This document shows positions 3,074 to 63,639 of a DNA stretch of 64,000 bases, in pieces (the first letter of the stretch is position 1; every line of letters starts with the position of its first letter). Origin of the DNA: Bacillota bacterium (lineage in GTDB: Bacteria; Bacillota; Limnochordia; DTU087); the NCBI GenBank assembly GCA_012798695.1, contig JAAZMR010000037.1:3150-67149 (forward strand), read 5' to 3'. Under the pieces are notes generated by a model. It was given only the letters and a program-made list of their open reading frames with translations. It made no database searches and was not told the origin of the DNA. The position numbers were made by a program, and so were the translations under genes.

Positions 3074-3151
3074 TGGTCGGGCTGACAGGATTCGAACCTG
3101 CGACCTCATGACCCCCAGTCATGCGCGCTAGCCAAACTGCGCCACAGCCCG
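3074..3151 (-). tRNA. tRNA-Pro, anticodon GGG, CCA encoded
   Basis: Reverse complement CGGGCTGTGGCGCAGTTTGGCTAGCGCGCATGACTGGGGGTCATGAGGTCGCAGGTTCGAATCCTGTCAGCCCGACCA folds as a cloverleaf with a TTCGAAT T-loop and CATGA/TCATG anticodon stem. Confidence 0.97.
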
Positions 3152-3992: not shown

Positions 3993-4274
3993 CTAACCAC
4001 CCCAACCGTTCTCTATCTTTGGTATCGTATCACAAGGTCTAGGGCGCTAAGGCCTAATAGTACGTACAAATCCCAAACCTCTATGCATCACTATATACTA
4101 CCAGTACAAGTTTAGAAAGGGCTGGTGCAGGATTCTCAAGCTTCATCTCGTGAGAAAGGAACTTTATGAAGAAGATAGAACTCGTCAATGTAGGTCAAGG
4201 GAGATTCCTTGGGCTCATGCATCCAGGAACTAACAGGGTTTAGAGTAGCTTGGACACTCAAAAGGAGGAGCATC

Positions 4275-5558
4275 ATGGACCGGGAACATGAGTACTATCA
4301 AGTTTTTCCGCTAGTCGTACCAGCCGACCAGATGACCACGATTACCATCAGATCACCATATGATCACTGCCGTTTTGAAGATGCCAAAGAATACGAAGTT
4401 GCCTACTATCCCAAAGAGTATTGGCCCAATGAACACCCAAAAAAGGAATTTGCTGTCAGAGCTCAAGGTAGCAGCCTGATCATACCCTATCATTTTACAG
4501 GAGAACAGGAACATATCTTTGCTGTAGCCACTCAAGTAAATGGCACTAGAAAACCAATCGGCACCTTCTCTGTCTACTCTCTTCAGCGGGACCTCTTTGA
4601 GAGAAGGCCCTTTAAGGGCGATCTACACATGCATACCTATTATTCAGACGGAGCGGAATCACCGGCATATGTGGCCGCCTCTAGTCGTAAGATAGGCCTG
4701 GATTTCATTGCCATCACGGATCACCACAAATATGCACCTTCACTTGAGGCCCTAGAGGCGTACAGTTCCACGGTAGTAGATCTGCAGATGTTTCCGGGTG
4801 AAGAGGTGCACCCTCCCGAATGCCATACACACATAGTAAACTTTGGCGGCAGTTTTAGTATAAACGAGCTGTTCGAGGACCGGAATTGGTACCAACACGA
4901 GATCAAACGAGTCATTGAGGAGCTTGGTCCTTTGCCACCCGGAATAGAGCCTCATGAATATGCTTCAGTGTTCTGGTGCTTTGAAAAGGTGCGCGAAGCT
5001 CAAGGGCTCGGCATATTTTGTCACCCTCACTGGGTCACTGATAACCGATACAACATCCCTCAGCCCTTCTTGGAATATGTCTTTGAAAAGCAGCCATTTG
5101 ACGCTTTTGAGCTGTTAGGTGGAATAACCCCCGAAGATAACAACTTACAGGTAGCCTATTACAATGAACAAAGAGCCCATGGTAAGGTAATTCCTATCGT
5201 GGGAGTGAGTGATGCTCATGGCTGCCACTCTCGCCAGAACTTTGGAGCCACTTATGCGATGGTGTTCTCCCCTACCTTAAGGTTACAGGACATCATTTCT
5301 AGCATCAACGAACTGTACAGTGTAGCCATTGAAGCGATACCCGGAGAAAACCCCCGGGTGTACGGACCCTTCCGGCTAGTCAAATACGCCCGGTTTCTCT
5401 TGCGGGAATATATACCACTACATGACCGCTTGTGTTTTGCTGAAGGAAACCATATGCTCGACTTCATCCGTGGGAGCAAAGACGCGGCCGCCTGGCTAGA
5501 GGCTAGCCAAGGCCAAACGAAAAGATTGATGGATAGGCTCTGGGCAAAAGGCACATAA
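4275..5558 (+). CDS. PHP-domain (metal-dependent phosphoesterase-like) protein with N-terminal extension
   Basis: DLHMHTYYSDG, ITDHH, GEEVH, CHPHW, SDAH motifs. Start moved to ATG 4275 behind SD AAAGGAGG. Confidence 0.85.
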   Translation: MDREHEYYQVFPLVVPADQMTTITIRSPYDHCRFEDAKEYEVAYYPKEYWPNEHPKKEFAVRAQGSSLIIPYHFTGEQEHIFAVATQVNGTRKPIGTFSVYSLQRDLFERRPFKGDLHMHTYYSDGAESPAYVAASSRKIGLDFIAITDHHKYAPSLEALEAYSSTVVDLQMFPGEEVHPPECHTHIVNFGGSFSINELFEDRNWYQHEIKRVIEELGPLPPGIEPHEYASVFWCFEKVREAQGLGIFCHPHWVTDNRYNIPQPFLEYVFEKQPFDAFELLGGITPEDNNLQVAYYNEQRAHGKVIPIVGVSDAHGCHSRQNFGATYAMVFSPTLRLQDIISSINELYSVAIEAIPGENPRVYGPFRLVKYARFLLREYIPLHDRLCFAEGNHMLDFIRGSKDAAAWLEASQGQTKRLMDRLWAKGT

Positions 5559-52820: not shown

Positions 52821-54314
52821 TTAGCTAGCCAAGCAAAGCTTGCGCAAACGGTCCCCTGACAGCTTTTCTTCCTTGAGAAGTTCTTCAGCCAATATGCCTG
52901 CTATTGTCTGATGGCTGCTCAGCAGGTTCCGGACACGCTGTTCCTGCTCAGCAATGATGGTCTTTACCTCCTTATTCACATCTTCCGACAGAACATGCTG
53001 TTTGCTTACTACTCCCAAGCCGGACATTCCGCAATAAATCATCTGGTGTGCCGCGTCAACTGCCTGATCAAAATCACCCTTAGAGCCAGTGCTGCGGCTG
53101 CCGAAGACCATTTCTTCCATGATGGCTCCACCCAAAGCGATGGCGATCTGATCTAGCAGCTGTTGCTTCGAATATAAATAGCGATCACCTTCTGGAGCCT
53201 GGCGCATATAGCCCAAAGCTTGTCCTCTGGGAATCACCGTCAAAGAGGAAACTGAGCCTTTGCGAATGCTTTCACTCACCAGGGCATGACCGATCTCGTG
53301 GTAGGCGATCCTGCGTCTCTCCTCTTCTAGAGGTTGGCGATCTAGTTTCTCTCCCAACATGACTTTTTCCAGTGCCTCACGCAGGTCTTCCTCACGAATC
53401 ACATTCGACTGATTCCGCAAAGCATTAATAGCTGCTTCATTCAACAAGCTTTCCAGATGTGCTCCAGAGAAACCAAAGGTTTCACGTGCTATCTTGTCCA
53501 AATCCACACTAGCTGCCAAAGGCTTGTTTTTGGCGTGGATCCTGAGTATATGCAGCCGCCCTTCCTTGTCAGGTAAATCGACCCTAACCACCCGATCAAA
53601 CCGACCGGGCCGAATCAGCGCGGGATCTAGTAAATCAGGCCGGTTGGTCGCGCCCACCATCAGCACCCGCACTTCTGTCTCAGCATTTATTCCGTCCATT
53701 TCTACGAGCAGCTGATTCAGAGTCTGATCATACTCCAAATGGCTGCTGTGACGACCCCGCTTTCCCCCAATTACTTCGATCTCATCTATAAAGACAATCG
53801 CACTATCTTTTCCCTGATGTGCAGCTGCTTGTCTACCCATGTTAAACAGCTTACGTATTCTCTGTGCCCCAACTCCAGCATACATTTCTACAAAAGATGA
53901 GCCACTGGCGGAAACAAATGCAGAATCCGTAAAACTCGCAGCTGCCTTAGCCAAGAGAGTTTTGCCGGTACCCGGAGGCCCAACCAGCAAAATGCCTTTC
54001 AAAGGACGAATACCCAGACTTTGGCTTTTCTCTCGGTTACAGATGAATTCTAAAGCTTCTAGGAGCTCTCGTTTGGCGGTTTCTTGACCACCGATATCAT
54101 CAAAGGTGACTACAGGTCCTGTGGAATCACGCGCATCAAGGGTTACAGCCTCTAGCTTACGGCTACTGGAAAAACGCCCGGCAAACATCATCTGCAGTAG
54201 AACGGCCAGTCCCGCCATCACCACTATAGGGGTAATATCGACACCCCAGATCCCTAACGCGATGACCAAGGCGAAACCTGAACCTAGTGCTGCCTCTTTC
54301 CAGTAAATCTCCAC
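52821..54314 (-). CDS. Short FtsH-like AAA+ / M41 metalloprotease paralog
   Basis: GPPGTGKT, FVEMYAGVG, FIDEIE, ATNRPDLLDPALIRPGRFDR, HEIGH; N-terminal TMs with no extracytoplasmic domain; GTG start at ~54314. Confidence 0.88.
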   Translation of the reverse strand: MEIYWKEAALGSGFALVIALGIWGVDITPIVVMAGLAVLLQMMFAGRFSSSRKLEAVTLDARDSTGPVVTFDDIGGQETAKRELLEALEFICNREKSQSLGIRPLKGILLVGPPGTGKTLLAKAAASFTDSAFVSASGSSFVEMYAGVGAQRIRKLFNMGRQAAAHQGKDSAIVFIDEIEVIGGKRGRHSSHLEYDQTLNQLLVEMDGINAETEVRVLMVGATNRPDLLDPALIRPGRFDRVVRVDLPDKEGRLHILRIHAKNKPLAASVDLDKIARETFGFSGAHLESLLNEAAINALRNQSNVIREEDLREALEKVMLGEKLDRQPLEEERRRIAYHEIGHALVSESIRKGSVSSLTVIPRGQALGYMRQAPEGDRYLYSKQQLLDQIAIALGGAIMEEMVFGSRSTGSKGDFDQAVDAAHQMIYCGMSGLGVVSKQHVLSEDVNKEVKTIIAEQEQRVRNLLSSHQTIAGILAEELLKEEKLSGDRLRKLCLAS

Positions 54315-54319
54315 GGTCC

Positions 54320-54859
54320 TCACCCCTCTCGTTCTACACTTTTCCACGCCATCGCGTGATTGCGCGCAAACACCTGGTAAAGATGCTCAGGTCCATGGTG
54401 CATTGCCAAACAAACAAATTGCGGCCCTACCCAGATCTCGTAGTCCTCTATACCGCGATGGGCTAGTTCATTCTCAACACTGTTTACCATCAGCTGAAAC
54501 CGACCTGTAGCAATGCCTTCCTCAACAGCATAGTGGATGGCGTAAAGTGCCTCGGAAAGGATAGGACCCCTGCTATCTTGGATGAAGATCCGCTCAGGCG
54601 GTATCCCTGCCTGCTTTGATAACCTCAGCATCTCGTCATAAGCTATCTTGAACCCAATCCCCTCTTGCAGCTCCACAACTAGGCTAAGACCGTCCGCGTC
54701 GGATTTGATATGGGCGGTTTTCACCCCCGTAGTATCCAGGAATTCTGCTTCAAGGTTACTGAGCATATGCTGCCTAAAGACAAAACGCTGACCGAGCAGC
54801 AGCAGGGTCAGTGTAATTGCAAAAACTATGATCACGACCGGAATCCGTATTCTCCCCAT
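54320..54859 (-). CDS. Hypothetical membrane-anchored protein
   Basis: MGRIRIPVVIIVFAITLTLLLLG signal/TM anchor; couples to the FtsH-like gene; start uncertain. Confidence 0.7.
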   Translation of the reverse strand: MGRIRIPVVIIVFAITLTLLLLGQRFVFRQHMLSNLEAEFLDTTGVKTAHIKSDADGLSLVVELQEGIGFKIAYDEMLRLSKQAGIPPERIFIQDSRGPILSEALYAIHYAVEEGIATGRFQLMVNSVENELAHRGIEDYEIWVGPQFVCLAMHHGPEHLYQVFARNHAMAWKSVEREG

Positions 54860-57143: not shown

Positions 57144-58100
57144 ATGCTAGTCCCCATCTTTCTCATTGCGGTTGCTTTACAGGTATGGTCCTGGTCACCC
57201 GCAGCCTACCCTTTCTTAGTTTTCCTCATGATCACGGGAGTTATGGTGGCCAACAATTTGGTTTTCATGTTACTATTCTGGCAAGGAGTCACATGGGCTG
57301 GATATCTCATTCTGATCGCCTCTCGGCGGAAGGCCTGGACTGCAGCTCTCTCTCCTCTTCAACATGATATGAATGCTTTCCAAGAAGATGACTCTCGCGG
57401 GCAACCGACCGGAATGAAAGCAGCTTTTCACCATGCACTGCTCTGGCAATTGATCGGTGATGTACTCTTGCTCTCCCTGCTATTTGTGGTCAATCCCCAC
57501 CTAACAGCGCCAATTGCGGCAGATACCTACACTGCATCTATTGCCTCTTGTTTGACGCCTTCCACAGGTTGGCTGGGCACCATGTTCTTCATCTTGGGTG
57601 CCACTACACTCCTTCTAAAAATAACAGCCTGGACCCTTATTCAAAAGGAAAGCTTGTCTCTTACCTTTTTGCATACAGATCAAATGTATGTCAATTCATT
57701 CTGGGTATCTATTACCCTAGTAGCACTATATCAAACAATACGCCTGGCACATGTTTGCTTGCCCTCAACCCATAATCTAGCCGGAACAATTGGAATAACG
57801 GTTTCCTTCATGGTGCTAGCCTACCTATTGCACAGCTGGATTGACTACTACGGACATAAGCATCTGTGGCTCCCTCAGATATTGCCACTCCTAGGTCATG
57901 GCACTTCCGGCTGGGACATCAGGCTTAGTTTGGGAGCACTTGATTTCGCTGTATCATCCTTGAGTACTTTGGGAGCTGCCTGTATTGAGTTTGAGACCCA
58001 CCTGGTGCAGCTGAGCCAAGGTCTTATGCGCGTGCTTCTGATCGCTCAATCAGTGCCAAGAAGAATTTACCGGCTTTTGTTCAGCAAAACGATTGACTAG
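57144..58100 (+). CDS. Truncated, degenerate NuoL/MrpA-like membrane protein (318 aa)
   Basis: ANNLVFMLLFWQGV..AGYLIL aligns by eye to NuoL ADNL...GWEGVGLCSYLLI, and LIGDV aligns to RVGDV. SD AAAGGAG before ATG 57144. Much of the family core is missing. Confidence 0.6.
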   Translation: MLVPIFLIAVALQVWSWSPAAYPFLVFLMITGVMVANNLVFMLLFWQGVTWAGYLILIASRRKAWTAALSPLQHDMNAFQEDDSRGQPTGMKAAFHHALLWQLIGDVLLLSLLFVVNPHLTAPIAADTYTASIASCLTPSTGWLGTMFFILGATTLLLKITAWTLIQKESLSLTFLHTDQMYVNSFWVSITLVALYQTIRLAHVCLPSTHNLAGTIGITVSFMVLAYLLHSWIDYYGHKHLWLPQILPLLGHGTSGWDIRLSLGALDFAVSSLSTLGAACIEFETHLVQLSQGLMRVLLIAQSVPRRIYRLLFSKTID

Positions 58101-58155
58101 CCTAGCAGAGTTTTTAGCTTATGTAGATTTTGCACAGTGACAGGAGGTCATCTCT

Positions 58156-59595
58156 GTGTTAACAACCCTAACGTTTTTCCCAGTAGCCGCAGCTTTACTA
58201 TTGATGCTCACACCCAAGGATAATCAAGAACTTCTATATAAGTTGAATATAGCAGTCTCGCTGGTGCCCTTCGTCTTGGTGCTCCTAGCCTGGCCCATGT
58301 TTTCTTTTGAGGAGCCGATCCTCTCTCTGCTGGAAAGCCGCGACTGCATACCCTCCATAGGTGTCTCCTATTCCTTGTTACTAGATGGAGTCAATCTCCC
58401 CTTTCTGGCCATGCTAACTTTTCTTACTGTTGTTGCAAGCCTCATACCACCACTACCAGGAGAGAATCTAAAAAAGAGAAGCATGCTGCTCCTCGTTTGG
58501 GAAGCCACTCTCATCGGCGCATTCCTAGCACAAGATTACGTTCTTTTCCTGATGTTTTGGGCACTGGGAACCATCCCCATATACTTCCTAATGGAGCCCT
58601 CCCTTGACTTAGAACCAATACCCACAACTCGATGTTATGTGTTGTCCAGCCTACTCAGCATAGTAGCTCTAGGCAGTGGTCTTCTGATCCTTTCTGCTAC
58701 GGTTGATACCTCCACCCCGACCATTAGCGAACTAGCGAGTTCTGTCGTAACCCACCTAGACCCAGACACTCAGTGGTGGATTTTTCTCGCTATCTTCGTG
58801 GGATGCTCCTTGCGTATCCCACTCTTCCCTTTTCACATATGGCTGCGGCTGATGATCAGCAAATTGCGGCCACCTGCTGGGATACTGCTGGTCGGAGGCT
58901 TCATCCCACTGGGAGTCTATACCCTGCTGCGCTTCGCCCTAGCAGTCTTGCCTGACGCAGTAGCAGCCTTTACGTTGGTCTTGGCCGCGGCAGGAATAGT
59001 GAATATGCTTTTCGGTTCACTAGCAGCTCTGGGGACACCAAATCGCCAGCACAAAGCCGCATATTATGTTATGGGCTATACAGGTACTGCTCTCCTAGGA
59101 ATGGCAACCCTGACTGTGGAGGGAATTAGTGGCGCCTTCTATACCATTCTTTCACTCGGGGCAGCCATCACCTTCTCCCTGACACTGACCTACCTGACAT
59201 CTAAGCAGATCACCTCCCAAGGGTGGCCTCTCGTCCTTCATGGCCTAGAAGCTGCTCAACAACTGCGCCTACCTGGTTTTGCCGGTTTTGTTGGCCTTAT
59301 GTTGGTCTTTCCCCCGGTATTTCACAGCTTTGCCGGCATGTCACTAGCTATCATAGCCGTTCTTTTTCTTACCGCCATTGATTATGCCCGGTCCTTGTCA
59401 GAAACCCTCGACAGGCCTGATATACAGAAAGCCCCTCACCCTCTAGATACCTCTAGTCTCCAATGGCCACCGATCGGGTTGGTGGCCGCAATCGTCCTGC
59501 TTCTCGGTGGAAGTGTAGTCTTGGGGCTAAACCCGGAGCTGATTCTGAAGGTTGTAGAGCCTGCCATTAAGCACGTAGCTCTCTTGCTGGACTGA
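58156..59595 (+). CDS. Degenerate NuoM/MrpD-like membrane protein (479 aa)
   Basis: IPSIGVSYSLLLDG, FLAQDYVLFLMFW..IPIYFL, IPLFPFHIWL, GVYTLLRF, LPGFAGFVG match NuoM; SD AGGAGG. Confidence 0.8.
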   Translation: MLTTLTFFPVAAALLLMLTPKDNQELLYKLNIAVSLVPFVLVLLAWPMFSFEEPILSLLESRDCIPSIGVSYSLLLDGVNLPFLAMLTFLTVVASLIPPLPGENLKKRSMLLLVWEATLIGAFLAQDYVLFLMFWALGTIPIYFLMEPSLDLEPIPTTRCYVLSSLLSIVALGSGLLILSATVDTSTPTISELASSVVTHLDPDTQWWIFLAIFVGCSLRIPLFPFHIWLRLMISKLRPPAGILLVGGFIPLGVYTLLRFALAVLPDAVAAFTLVLAAAGIVNMLFGSLAALGTPNRQHKAAYYVMGYTGTALLGMATLTVEGISGAFYTILSLGAAITFSLTLTYLTSKQITSQGWPLVLHGLEAAQQLRLPGFAGFVGLMLVFPPVFHSFAGMSLAIIAVLFLTAIDYARSLSETLDRPDIQKAPHPLDTSSLQWPPIGLVAAIVLLLGGSVVLGLNPELILKVVEPAIKHVALLLD

Positions 59596-60646: not shown

Positions 60647-62320
60647 TCAAGTAGTCTGGTTCCCATTTTCCTTATCTGCTGGGGCTTCATCTCCATCTGA
60701 CCAACTATTGATGGCCGCCATCACCGCTTTCCACCAAGTATCGACCAATCGCCCTGTGTCTGCAGGAAGATCATGCTCACTATAACGAGCCTCGAGATAG
60801 GAATCAGTGAGCAGCTCCAGTTCCTCTTGGGCCGTATGCAGCTTACTGCCCAAGCTTGCTGAGTACTCCAAGGGCGTTTCACCAAGACCGGGCGCCATGC
60901 CATGTCTCCCGGCAGCCTCAATCAATAACCCAAACAGGTAGCGAACATATAAGGCAGCGGCCGTAGGAGGAGCTCTTCGGTGCAGCTGCCTTCTCGTGCC
61001 TCTCTCTACCTGCCTGACCGGTTCAGCCCTGTGCAGCCGATTCCACAGTACCTTACCTCGTCTGGCACCGATAGAGATTAACCTCAGAAGCTGCCGAAGG
61101 GTCTCTCTTGACCAAAGGTAGACATAGACAGGGATCCTAAATAGTCCATGGAGCTTCTCCCACTCATCTCGGAAGAATGTGAGGAGTACTAGTCCCACCA
61201 AGGCGGCAACCACCCCCAGCACTACAACAACCATCACGAAAGACATAATAAAATAAAAGATAGCCACCAACCAACTGAACACTCCAGCCTCCGGTACCCC
61301 CGTTAAGCCTGGTGATGGTGTATACGCCGTGCCACCCCCAGGTTGTTGCTGAGGTACAGAAAACTCCATGGTTTTGCCCAGCCACCGGCCTAGCGCGGCC
61401 ATAGTCCGGCTGAAGCTGAGTGGTGATAAACCAGCTGGCACGATTGACCCCAGGAGAAGCACCAAGCCAATAAACCCTATACTACTCCAGACCCACTGGC
61501 TAGGCAGTTCCGGGCCCACCGGGATTCTCACTTCCTGCCATATTACCTGCAAACGATAAAGATACACACAGGCCTGCAGCAGTAAACCCGAAAACAATAG
61601 GCCTAGGGTAGCCAGGTTGGTCAGATTGCTCCAACCGGTTAGCTGTGCCAATCTCTCGGGAAAACCTTCTATGACAATTGCATTAAGCACACAAGACAGA
61701 GAGGCGTAAAAGAGAAATCTACGGGTAAAGTAGGTTGCTGTCCGGGAACGTCCTTCACTAACCTGATAATCCGAGAGATATGATTCAGTCTCCCAAGAGA
61801 AGGTCTGAGCGCCCTGGTCACCTACTTCCCTGGCTATATCCCCTAGCCCCACAAAAGCCTGACCATAACCTCTAGCTAGAGACCAAGCACCGGCTACCAA
61901 GAGTAACGGCAGCAAAACGTCTGGGTTGCGCCAGATCAACGAAGAGAAGAAAGGATACTCCCCTCCTGTTCTGCCAATACGCAAGCCCACATATACCAGG
62001 CTCAAGATCGCAAGCAATTCCAGAATCCGCAAACTTACAGGAGTTCGAAGCCTCAGATGCATGCCGGCAGCATAGATACTCTCCACAGCGGCTATAGCCC
62101 CTGCTGCTATCACCCAGCGGGGCACACATACCTGTGGTGCCATGATCACCAAGTATTGCCGCCCCAATATCAATAAACTAATAGTAAAAATGCTGGCTAA
62201 CCCCGGCATGATCAATCTCTCCAACCAATGCCCCTGTTGTTTAGCCAAATGCATAATTCTATCAATATAAGGGTCGTTACGTGCCGATGTAGATTGCGTC
62301 TCAAAAGTGTTTTCCTGCAT
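60647..62320 (-). CDS. Multi-pass membrane protein with C-terminal DUF4129-like domain
   Basis: About 10 TM segments; C-terminal ETPLEY...LTDSYLEARYS is typical of DUF4129; start ATG 62320 behind GGAGG. Confidence 0.75.
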   Translation of the reverse strand: MQENTFETQSTSARNDPYIDRIMHLAKQQGHWLERLIMPGLASIFTISLLILGRQYLVIMAPQVCVPRWVIAAGAIAAVESIYAAGMHLRLRTPVSLRILELLAILSLVYVGLRIGRTGGEYPFFSSLIWRNPDVLLPLLLVAGAWSLARGYGQAFVGLGDIAREVGDQGAQTFSWETESYLSDYQVSEGRSRTATYFTRRFLFYASLSCVLNAIVIEGFPERLAQLTGWSNLTNLATLGLLFSGLLLQACVYLYRLQVIWQEVRIPVGPELPSQWVWSSIGFIGLVLLLGSIVPAGLSPLSFSRTMAALGRWLGKTMEFSVPQQQPGGGTAYTPSPGLTGVPEAGVFSWLVAIFYFIMSFVMVVVVLGVVAALVGLVLLTFFRDEWEKLHGLFRIPVYVYLWSRETLRQLLRLISIGARRGKVLWNRLHRAEPVRQVERGTRRQLHRRAPPTAAALYVRYLFGLLIEAAGRHGMAPGLGETPLEYSASLGSKLHTAQEELELLTDSYLEARYSEHDLPADTGRLVDTWWKAVMAAINSWSDGDEAPADKENGNQTT

Positions 62321-62379
62321 TTTCCTCCATCTTTCTCCGTCAAACGCCCATTTAGACCGAAACTGCTGTGCAGGCACCC

Positions 62380-63639
62380 TTACCGAAAAGACCCTATCCC
62401 CCAGGTGATGGTTTCCCTTTTGGTTATCCGAAACAGCTGTAGGTTCGCTTGAGCGGACCGATACAAGAGCTGAGGGTGTGTGACTGTACGGCCGACGACA
62501 AAGATCAGTACTTGATACCCCGAGCGCAGCAAGGCCATAGCAGTTTCCACCAACTCCGGAGAATCGTTGGGGGTAATTACCAGCAAGGTTGCACCCCATG
62601 CCAAATTCCCCGCTTCATTGGAGAAAAGTTGAGTAAATGATGCCCCCGGACGACATTCGGCGGCGGCTAAGGCTTCAAGGATCCGCATCAGTTGAGCCAT
62701 ACCCTTCCGGGGTAGGAATCTTACCGTCGGCTGTGAGTTAAGTGTTGCGGCCGGGGCTGGTTCCTCGGGGAGCTTCAGGCCTACCTCAGCTCGCTGTTGC
62801 CGAAGGTAAGCATTAGAAACCAATCCAAAGGACTCACCCGCTTGTGCCAAATGATTGGCCAGACTAGCCGCTGCCTCGATGGCTAGTTCACTCTCAACGT
62901 AAAAGTTGTCTACTGGATAGTCCTCTTCATTGAGGTTGAGGAAAATAACGATATCAACGGCAACAGTATGCTGGAATTGCTTTACCTGCAATTCTCCCGT
63001 GCGAGCAGTGAGTTTCCAGTGAATTGACTGGCGGCTGTCACCACTTTGATACTGTCTTACTCCAGCTAGCCGGGCCGGATCAGGAAAAATTGGCTGCCTA
63101 GTGCGTACGTTGCCATAGGGTAATTTGGACGGTAGCCCCAACTCCGGTAAGGCAAAAACACGAGGATATACGATTATGTCGTGATAGGATTCAACTATGT
63201 CAGAAAACTGATGCAAGCCGAGAGGTTCCCCGGCAGATATCTCCAGAGGGCCAACAGTATACAGGCCGCGCTGGGACGCGGTGATAGTATATCGGGCAGT
63301 AGATTCAGCCAGGGGACCTAATGACAGTACCCATCGCTGCGCACGCCCTGCTTCTAAGGCCACCGGCAGATGCTCATATCCGGAAAGCCATGCCAGGGGA
63401 ACTATGGTCCGATTGCGAAAGGCGAGTGAGATTTCGCCCGTCTCACCCAGGAAAAGTCGAGTACGCTCCGATGAACGTGTGGTCTCTACCCGTTCGAATG
63501 CATACTTGAGTAAACGTCCACCACCCCAATAAGCTATCCCCAAGGCACAAAATGTCATATATATGCCTTTTGCTGGAAAAAAGAGAGTGATTACCAGCAA
63601 GAAAGCTAAGTACAATTTCCACCAATTCAAGGCATTCAC
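62380..63639 (-). CDS. DUF58 domain protein
   Basis: RGLYTVGP, IIVYPRV, GVRQYQSGDSRQSIHWKLTARTGELQVKQF. Confidence 0.9.
   Translation of the reverse strand: MNALNWWKLYLAFLLVITLFFPAKGIYMTFCALGIAYWGGGRLLKYAFERVETTRSSERTRLFLGETGEISLAFRNRTIVPLAWLSGYEHLPVALEAGRAQRWVLSLGPLAESTARYTITASQRGLYTVGPLEISAGEPLGLHQFSDIVESYHDIIVYPRVFALPELGLPSKLPYGNVRTRQPIFPDPARLAGVRQYQSGDSRQSIHWKLTARTGELQVKQFQHTVAVDIVIFLNLNEEDYPVDNFYVESELAIEAAASLANHLAQAGESFGLVSNAYLRQQRAEVGLKLPEEPAPAATLNSQPTVRFLPRKGMAQLMRILEALAAAECRPGASFTQLFSNEAGNLAWGATLLVITPNDSPELVETAMALLRSGYQVLIFVVGRTVTHPQLLYRSAQANLQLFRITKRETITWGIGSFR

Follow-up and report, generated by a model that had tools for sequence, protein, structure and literature searches.

A conserved NuoM-like membrane protein of uncultured Bacillota without the relay residues of antiporter-like subunits

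An open reading frame (ORF) at positions 58156-59595 of the plus strand, within a 64,000-nucleotide stretch of a Bacillota bacterium genome (assembly GCA_012798695.1, contig JAAZMR010000037.1, forward-strand positions 3,150 to 67,149; hereafter the window), encodes a stand-alone NuoM/NdhD-like membrane protein of 479 residues, P0001, in which all six relay residues of the family are substituted. Complex I, Mrp and membrane-bound hydrogenases pump protons by means of their antiporter-like subunits, and the axis of Lys, Glu and His residues in these subunits is seen as defining; in the canonical mechanism of complex I and Mrp, these protonatable residues are arranged along a hydrated axis. As judged from sequence, what is known in the present case is the fold and the ancestry, and what is new is a conserved NuoM-like family without the defining relay. 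Our search of the literature found no description of a fully relay-less or charge-less orphan NuoM family.

P0001 is a polytopic membrane protein and its ORF is real, with a GTG start at 58156 and a Shine-Dalgarno sequence, AGGAGG (58142-58147, plus strand), that can be read directly in the sequence 8 nucleotides 5' of the start. In Pfam, P0001 scores 54.7 bits for PF00361 against a gathering cutoff of 21.5, with only residues 125-334 covered. In NCBIfam, the NuoM model TIGR01972 (NDH_I_M) aligns with it from end to end (479 residues) at 184.9 bits, under the cutoff of 263.8. All equivalog models are far under their cutoffs, and the MrpD and NuoN models give at most 48 bits, the best MrpD score being 48 against a cutoff of 542; the NuoM-type profile is therefore far above that of MrpD (185 versus 48 bits). 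The best solved relatives by sequence are NdhD1 (6hum_D, E=2.8e-31), NdhD3 (6tjv_D) and chloroplast NdhD; plant Nad4 and bacterial NuoM come next. An AlphaFold2 model of P0001, built on 13 orthologues (predicted local distance difference test score, pLDDT, 66.6; predicted template modelling score, pTM, 0.69), shows helix breaks at 219-227 and 370-374. With this model as query, the top Foldseek matches are NuoM, NdhD and ND4 chains, 8e9g_M, 6khi_D and 3rko among them, at template modelling scores of 0.67-0.73 and E-values down to 5e-15. P0001 thus has the antiporter-like fold of 14 transmembrane helices (TM1-TM14) with discontinuous TM7 and TM12. Given that the sequence homology and the fold matches agree, P0001 is a member of the NuoM/NdhD branch of the antiporter-like superfamily.

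The relay positions were read from three alignments: HMMER pairwise alignments to the NdhD1, NdhD3 and chloroplast NdhD chains, a MAFFT alignment of 22 sequences including E. coli NuoM, and a MAFFT alignment of 262 sequences made up of 17 clade members and 245 other NuoM-like proteins. Both MAFFT sets contained P0001, its orthologues and canonical NuoMs; canonical sites are numbered by E. coli NuoM, taken from NC_000913. The identical six substitutions in P0001 come from all three. Glu144 of TM5 is replaced by Ala136 (codon 58561-58563, on the plus strand like all codons given below), a site that holds Ala, Thr or Val in the clade and Glu in 174/174 fully canonical sequences. Lys234 of TM7 is replaced by Arg220 (58813-58815), and the central Lys265 of TM8 by Pro251 (58906-58908), each of these two replacements being present in 17/17 members of the clade. 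The site of His322 holds Tyr308 (59077-59079), with Tyr in 15/17 members and Cys and Gln in the others. Leu334 (59155-59157) takes the place of His348 in TM11, where the clade has Leu, Met or Thr, and Leu381 (59296-59298) that of Glu407 in TM12, where it has Leu, Ile or Phe. Furthermore, the LPDAH motif after TM7 reads LRLMI in P0001, with Asp246 changed to Leu and His248 to Ile while His241 is kept.

In the 262-sequence alignment, every one of the 17 clade members (17/17) has 0/6 of the canonical relay residues. Among the 245 other NuoM-like proteins, the canonical residue is found at Glu144 in 214, Lys234 in 210, Lys265 in 224, His322 in 208, His348 in 225 and Glu407 in 204 (83-92%). Given that these other proteins mostly keep the residues and that no clade member keeps any, the loss of all six is not due to chance. 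A preliminary description of the window, made by eye, had already listed E144A, K234R, K265P, H322Y and E407L together with an absent His348, and each of these calls proved correct in the three alignments. The shortened segment that it placed ahead of 'LPG' corresponds to about 13 residues deleted from the TM11-TM12 loop of P0001 in the 22-sequence alignment. Two of the checks that it proposed came out on the same side: a formal alignment against NuoM places no canonical Glu or Lys at the equivalent sites of P0001, and the substitutions extend to all 17 orthologues.

Charge as such has not disappeared from the protein. E116 (58501-58503), which lies in a hydrophobic context in TM4, is Glu in 16/16 clade members scored and in 65/174 canonical NuoMs. 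The positive charge of the TM7 lysine is preserved in the clade by R220. R371 (59266-59268), which precedes the Pro of the TM12 'LPG' break by two residues, is Arg in 14/16 clade members, the others having Lys and His, where canonical sequences have Gly in 155/174; D409 (59380-59382) in TM13 is Asp in 16/16, where canonical sequences have Tyr in 163/174 (Tyr435 in E. coli). R371, D409 and K300 are gains of the clade relative to canonical NuoM, and the first two are clade-specific. Hence the earlier claim that the buried charged axis had been lost stands for the six relay residues, which are gone, but not for the charge at R220, the invariant E116 and the gained R371 and D409, which remain. The structural signature of the family is kept in the clade as well, namely D77-G78, D127, F/W135, Y143, Q206, P222, P225, H227, W229, Y255, R259, D267, Y303 and P373-G374-F378. 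The helix breaks marked by Pro and Gly are preserved in both TM7 (P.FP.H.WL) and TM12 (LPGF.GF). There are 52 invariant columns in the clade alignment, new clade-specific residues among them.

We found 17 intact, full-length orthologues of P0001 at 35-99% identity, with unbroken reading frames also at 35-66%, and their clade has a support of 1.0 in the tree. The sources retrieved by a word-indexed search are all anaerobic-digester or biogas metagenomes or metagenome-assembled genomes, and all of the entries are named 'hypothetical protein'; the sequencing runs that contain the sequence likewise come from biogas or anaerobic-digester samples. A search of genome contigs with P0001 alone yielded four genuine relatives. 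A profile search of 1.84 billion representatives returned only four clade representatives, three with scores of 701, 624 and 583 bits and a fragment with 299, and the next match scored 237. Given this drop from 299 to 237 bits after the four clade representatives, the orthologues form a narrow and sharply separated family of uncultured Bacillota.

The ratio of nonsynonymous to synonymous substitution rates (dN/dS; Nei-Gojobori, least saturated pairs) is 0.17-0.21 for the NuoM-like gene, as compared to 0.05-0.075 for rimO in the same genome pairs, with synonymous sites near saturation in this comparison. These values point to clear purifying selection that is roughly three times more relaxed than on a housekeeping enzyme, and they speak strongly against a pseudogene. 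Consistent with the weaker constraint, the protein is 43-65% identical to its relatives, versus 68-91% for the products of neighbouring genes. One metatranscriptome yielded two contigs, 99-100% identical, that span 58365-58758, which is modest evidence that the gene is transcribed. For a relay-less NuoM-like protein whose losses are conserved and which appears to be under purifying selection, the term 'pseudo-antiporter' used in the preliminary description seems a reasonable label.

The gene occupies the same place in seven loci, those of the window and of six relatives. On one side lie rrf2, an ftsH-like gene, a hypothetical gene, pgsA and rimO; then come a small partner gene (absent in the locus L002) and the NuoM-like gene; and on the other side are genes for MoxR, DUF4129 and DUF58. 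Since the synteny is fixed in all seven and GC content is uniform, the gene appears to be vertically inherited; the same two observations rule out a recent horizontal transfer. Nothing supports a functional link between the gene and either the MoxR/DUF58/DUF4129 cluster, which is convergent, or the rimO-pgsA genes, which are divergent: because the entire region is syntenic among the relatives, adjacency to either is uninformative. All neighbours in the window have unrelated functions according to Pfam and NCBIfam, and no hydrogenase, Mrp, DabA or CupA partner was found among them. A search of the ORFs of the window with the NuoM-family profile found no further PF00361 protein and no homologue of NuoN, NuoL, NuoK, NuoJ or NuoI, and neither the window nor the six related loci contain a nuo or ndh gene.

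The partner gene, immediately upstream at 57144-58100 (plus strand; ATG at 57144 after AAAGGAG), encodes a membrane protein of 318 residues with a C-terminal 'FE' motif, probably an eroded NuoL-like remnant. Nearly all ORFs of at least 200 codons in the window lie on the minus strand. Besides 4209-5558, the only unit on the plus strand is the pair formed by the partner and the NuoM-like gene, which is thus transcribed against the dominant orientation. The partner has no family match in Pfam or NCBIfam at E-values up to 10, and the HMMER run of the NuoM profile on all ORFs of the window did not detect it. Its length varies greatly by locus: 318 residues in the window, 283 in L089:4675-5526, 154 in L087:7471-7935, 141 in L084:7509-7934, 136 in L086:5328-5738 and 116 in L088:4408-4758, with none in L002. 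Long forms of 294-318 residues occur in five further clusters, and the L089 protein is also of the long form. The short forms (116-154 residues) are in-frame internal deletions in which the N-terminal helix is retained together with roughly 100 residues at the C-terminal end. All 10 forms aligned (10/10) share an invariant Phe-Glu, Phe-Asp in one of them, at the end of a hydrophobic segment. The dN/dS of the partner is 0.22-0.39, which argues for a real but fast-changing gene.

The central motif of the partner, NNLllmlxFWxGVTWAGYLI, resembles TM4-5 of NuoL, and its FWxGVTWAGYL portion is carried by the long forms. Three signals bear on this resemblance: the comparison with E. coli NuoL gives a BLASTP E-value of 0.004; hhalign against the NuoM-family profile gives E-values of 1.4e-4 and 2.9e-3 over about 160-170 columns; and in a profile search across the PDB, the sole match at E-values up to 10 was residues 124-169 of Paracoccus NuoL (E=0.039). 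The position of the TM5 Glu of NuoL is occupied by Gln, Val or Leu. Because the three signals, each of them weak, converge on one place (TM4-5), NuoL ancestry seems more likely than not. The partner would then be an eroding NuoL-like protein; its gene is probably co-transcribed with the NuoM-like gene.

Among known systems, P0001 resembles NuoM, Nqo13, ND4 and NdhD most, with homology over the full length, the same fold and the same break motifs in TM7 and TM12. It also shares with NuoM, ND4 and NdhD the structural residues D84, D135, H241, W243, Y269, R273 and Y317 (E. coli numbering). Unlike these proteins, it has replacements at all of E144, K234, K265, H322, H348 and E407, has lost LPDAH, and has a TM11-TM12 loop that is shorter by about 13 residues; its gene lies outside any nuo or ndh operon, alone with a small partner, and its TIGR01972 score is 185 bits against 264. 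Even NdhD3 (6tjv_D), a close match in both sequence and structure, keeps its relay residues. MrpD and MrpA (CPA3) belong to the same superfamily and are encoded in a comparable arrangement of adjacent A/L-type and D/M-type genes; P0001 differs from MrpD in its score (48 bits against a cutoff of 542), in the lack of adjacent mrpB, mrpC, mrpE, mrpF or mrpG, and in the loss of the relay.

Two further systems offer partial parallels. In cyanobacterial NdhF3, central polar and charged residues are exchanged for aromatic and aliphatic ones, and a gas channel has been proposed instead of a proton channel (PMC6358722). NdhF3, which serves CO2 uptake in NDH-1MS, is therefore similar to P0001 as an antiporter-like subunit whose charged axis has given way to hydrophobic residues. 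NdhF3, however, is of the NuoL type, retains an ion pair of Glu and Lys and operates within a complete NDH-1 together with CupA and CupS, whereas P0001 is of the NuoM type and lacks both a Glu/Lys pair and a CupA-like gene in its vicinity. Neither cupA/chpY nor ndhF3 is adjacent to the P0001 gene, and the lineage consists of anaerobic-digester Bacillota. DabB resembles P0001 in that it belongs to PF00361, stands alone outside complex I and works with one partner protein; in DAB2, the TM12 Lys/Asp missing from DabB2, which is NuoL-like, is substituted by Glu444 of DabA2 (bioRxiv 10.64898/2026.03.13.711513). DabB differs in being NuoL-like, in keeping its proton-path residues and in having as its partner DabA (PF10070), of 800-1100 residues, rather than a membrane protein of 116-318 residues and no recognised family. 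P0001 has lost the relay, and no PF10070 match, and neither DabA nor CupA, was found in any of the seven loci.

The DAB system is also met in the tree, where the nearest fully canonical relative of the clade, P0021, adjoins DabA and three more PF00361 genes. The order at this locus (L091:8001-17282) is the canonical NuoM-like P0021, a 1084-residue DabA (PF10070), a NuoL-like, a NuoM-like and a second NuoM-like gene. L091 is thus the locus of a DAB-type inorganic-carbon pump in which four antiporter-like subunits, rather than one, are encoded.

The tree neighbours nearest to the clade are other partly degenerate NuoM-like proteins, a grouping that may be affected by long-branch attraction. Sister to the clade is P0247 (L093:687-5342), which comes from a related Firmicute, has the six-residue pattern ERKQAG and lies near the same SNF2 and YqhG genes. 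It is flanked by two unclassified proteins of 557 and 493 residues. The former has a TM7-like 'GIFPFHLPWL' at about the expected position (hhalign E=0.0075), no NuoL- or NuoN-type signal was found in the latter, and the only link between these flanking proteins and the C-terminus of the partner has an E-value of about 0.1. L093 may, to go by these sequences, be an L-M-N trio degraded almost past recognition. The pair K234R/K265P also occurs in P0070, P0147, P0200, P0224 and P0240, on unrelated metagenomic contigs from other phyla. Several relay residues are missing from these proteins and from P0163 (loci L090, L094, L095 and L097). P0224, P0240 and the A/R/A-type P0163 stand in L-M or M-N pairs with no complex I genes visible at their loci; in L095, a LOG-family gene and one for a cyclic nucleotide monophosphate-binding protein flank the pair. 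Dead pairs of antiporter-like proteins may be a recurrent, undescribed theme.

Taken together, the evidence leads us to lean, by a small measure, towards P0001 being a membrane module that does not pump, has a dehydrated and hydrophobic interior and is kept for a structural or conduit role. P0001 descends vertically, within this lineage, from NuoM/NdhD of complex I. In this scenario, the distal membrane arm of a complex I-type enzyme, encoded by nuoL-nuoM, would have outlived the rest, and P0001 and its eroding NuoL-like partner would be the remnant. A distal-arm relic is suggested because the homology is to NuoM and not to MrpD, because an L-like gene precedes an M-like one, and because the L-like gene is progressively eroded. 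The former hydrated axis appears to be filled by the hydrophobic side chains of A136, P251, Y308, L334 and L381 and may be stapled by structural salt bridges, for which E116-R220 and R371-D409 are candidates. The role left to P0001, either alone or with the small partner, would then be that of a scaffold or of a hydrophobic conduit. Given that no Lys/Glu/His chain is left and that arginine is a poor proton shuttle, translocation of H+ or Na+ of the kind typical for the family is very unlikely. Purifying selection argues that P0001 has a real role, and it is the nature of this role that we infer.

Several observations weigh against this account. The invariant E116 and R220 could, together with the gained R371, D409 and K300, build a rewired polar path. 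The AlphaFold2 model is of moderate confidence, which makes the two salt bridges hypotheses only. The statistics in favour of NuoL ancestry of the partner agree with one another but are weak, and the RNA support consists of assembled contigs from one run, in which DNA carry-over is possible. Finally, the search for partners covered the window and six related loci, and a docking complex may be encoded elsewhere in the genome.

If P0001 still moved an ion or a small solute, it would do so by way of E116, R220, H227, K300, R371 and D409, with an acidic residue perhaps supplied in trans by the partner. Such a rewired transporter would account for the invariance of E116, R220 and D409 and the near-invariance of R371, for the gain of R371 and D409 where canonical proteins have Gly and Tyr, and for the conservation of the TM7 and TM12 breaks, which are the moving parts of the family. 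The Phe-Glu (in one case Phe-Asp) that ends the hydrophobic segment in 10/10 partner forms would fit as well, given that DabA2 Glu444 likewise donates a charge in trans (bioRxiv 10.64898/2026.03.13.711513), and so would the DabA gene beside P0021. We nevertheless consider it unlikely: lysine proton carriers cannot be replaced by Arg or Pro, no His/Lys/Glu chain links the remaining charges, the supposed donor is fast-evolving, highly variable in length and missing altogether from L002, and no DabA or CupA is present in the seven loci. P0001 might instead dock, as a non-pumping spacer or terminal cap, onto a complex encoded elsewhere; an 11-subunit complex I, a hydrogenase of the Ech/Hyf type and an Mrp-like module are examples. 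Antiporter-like subunits normally operate within multi-subunit membrane arms, the structural motifs that form the interfaces are retained here, and other partly degenerate NuoM-like proteins adjoin NuoL- or NuoN-like genes. On the other hand, the gene has a fixed position away from such operons in 7/7 loci, no other complex I or Mrp subunit is encoded in the window, and the genomes of the relatives are small (about 2.2 Mb in DTU087; PMC4736482) and their habitat is fermentative, in anaerobic digesters, so that this explanation appears rather improbable to us.

A functionless relic, still being lost and with an ORF that survives by chance, would explain why P0001 evolves faster than its housekeeping neighbours (43-65% versus 68-91% identity), why the adjacent partner is clearly eroding, from 318 residues to nothing, and why all catalytic residues are gone. 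It would not explain 17 intact, full-length orthologues down to 35% identity, a dN/dS of about 0.2 with synonymous sites near saturation, or 52 invariant columns that include new clade-specific residues; the strong ribosome-binding site and the RNA contigs also point to expression. We give this possibility hardly any weight. A more speculative proposal, which we put forward as a long shot, is that the two proteins form a device derived from the tip of complex I. Its interior would be a conduit or a site for a non-ionic ligand (CO2, H2, a lipid or a quinone-like molecule), or else the Phe-Glu helix of the partner, placed at the TM12 break near R371 and D409, would rebuild a gated charge site in trans.

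Two observations were made on neighbouring genes. The FtsH-like AAA+/M41 protease at 52821-54347 (minus strand; 508 residues) begins to match the FtsH model only at profile position 114, with 459 bits against a cutoff of 600, and apparently lacks the N-terminal transmembrane and periplasmic region, an arrangement that is the same in all related loci. The ORFs of DUF4129 (60647-62599) and DUF58 (62380-63639), both on the minus strand, overlap by about 220 bp, and the true start of the former is probably further downstream than that of the longest ORF.

The non-pumping module is, in our reading, a clean and conserved 'dead' antiporter-like protein that adds to a scattered pattern of such orphans. 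Annotation of its gene as 'hypothetical' or, wrongly, as 'NADH-quinone oxidoreductase subunit M' can mislead the metabolic reconstruction of anaerobic-digester genomes. Should the two-protein device prove true, it would represent a new functional class within the PF00361 superfamily, and the scattered K234R/K265P orphan pairs of other phyla would be convergent or related instances of it. The case also documents a distal arm of complex I that would have outlived the rest of the enzyme. By keeping the fold and the broken helices over the long term under apparent selection, with every relay residue replaced, the family amounts to a null mutant made by nature. What the scaffold may be capable of without pumping can be seen in it, and it would give structural and simulation studies of hydration-gated proton transfer a reference that is dehydrated and stable by nature.

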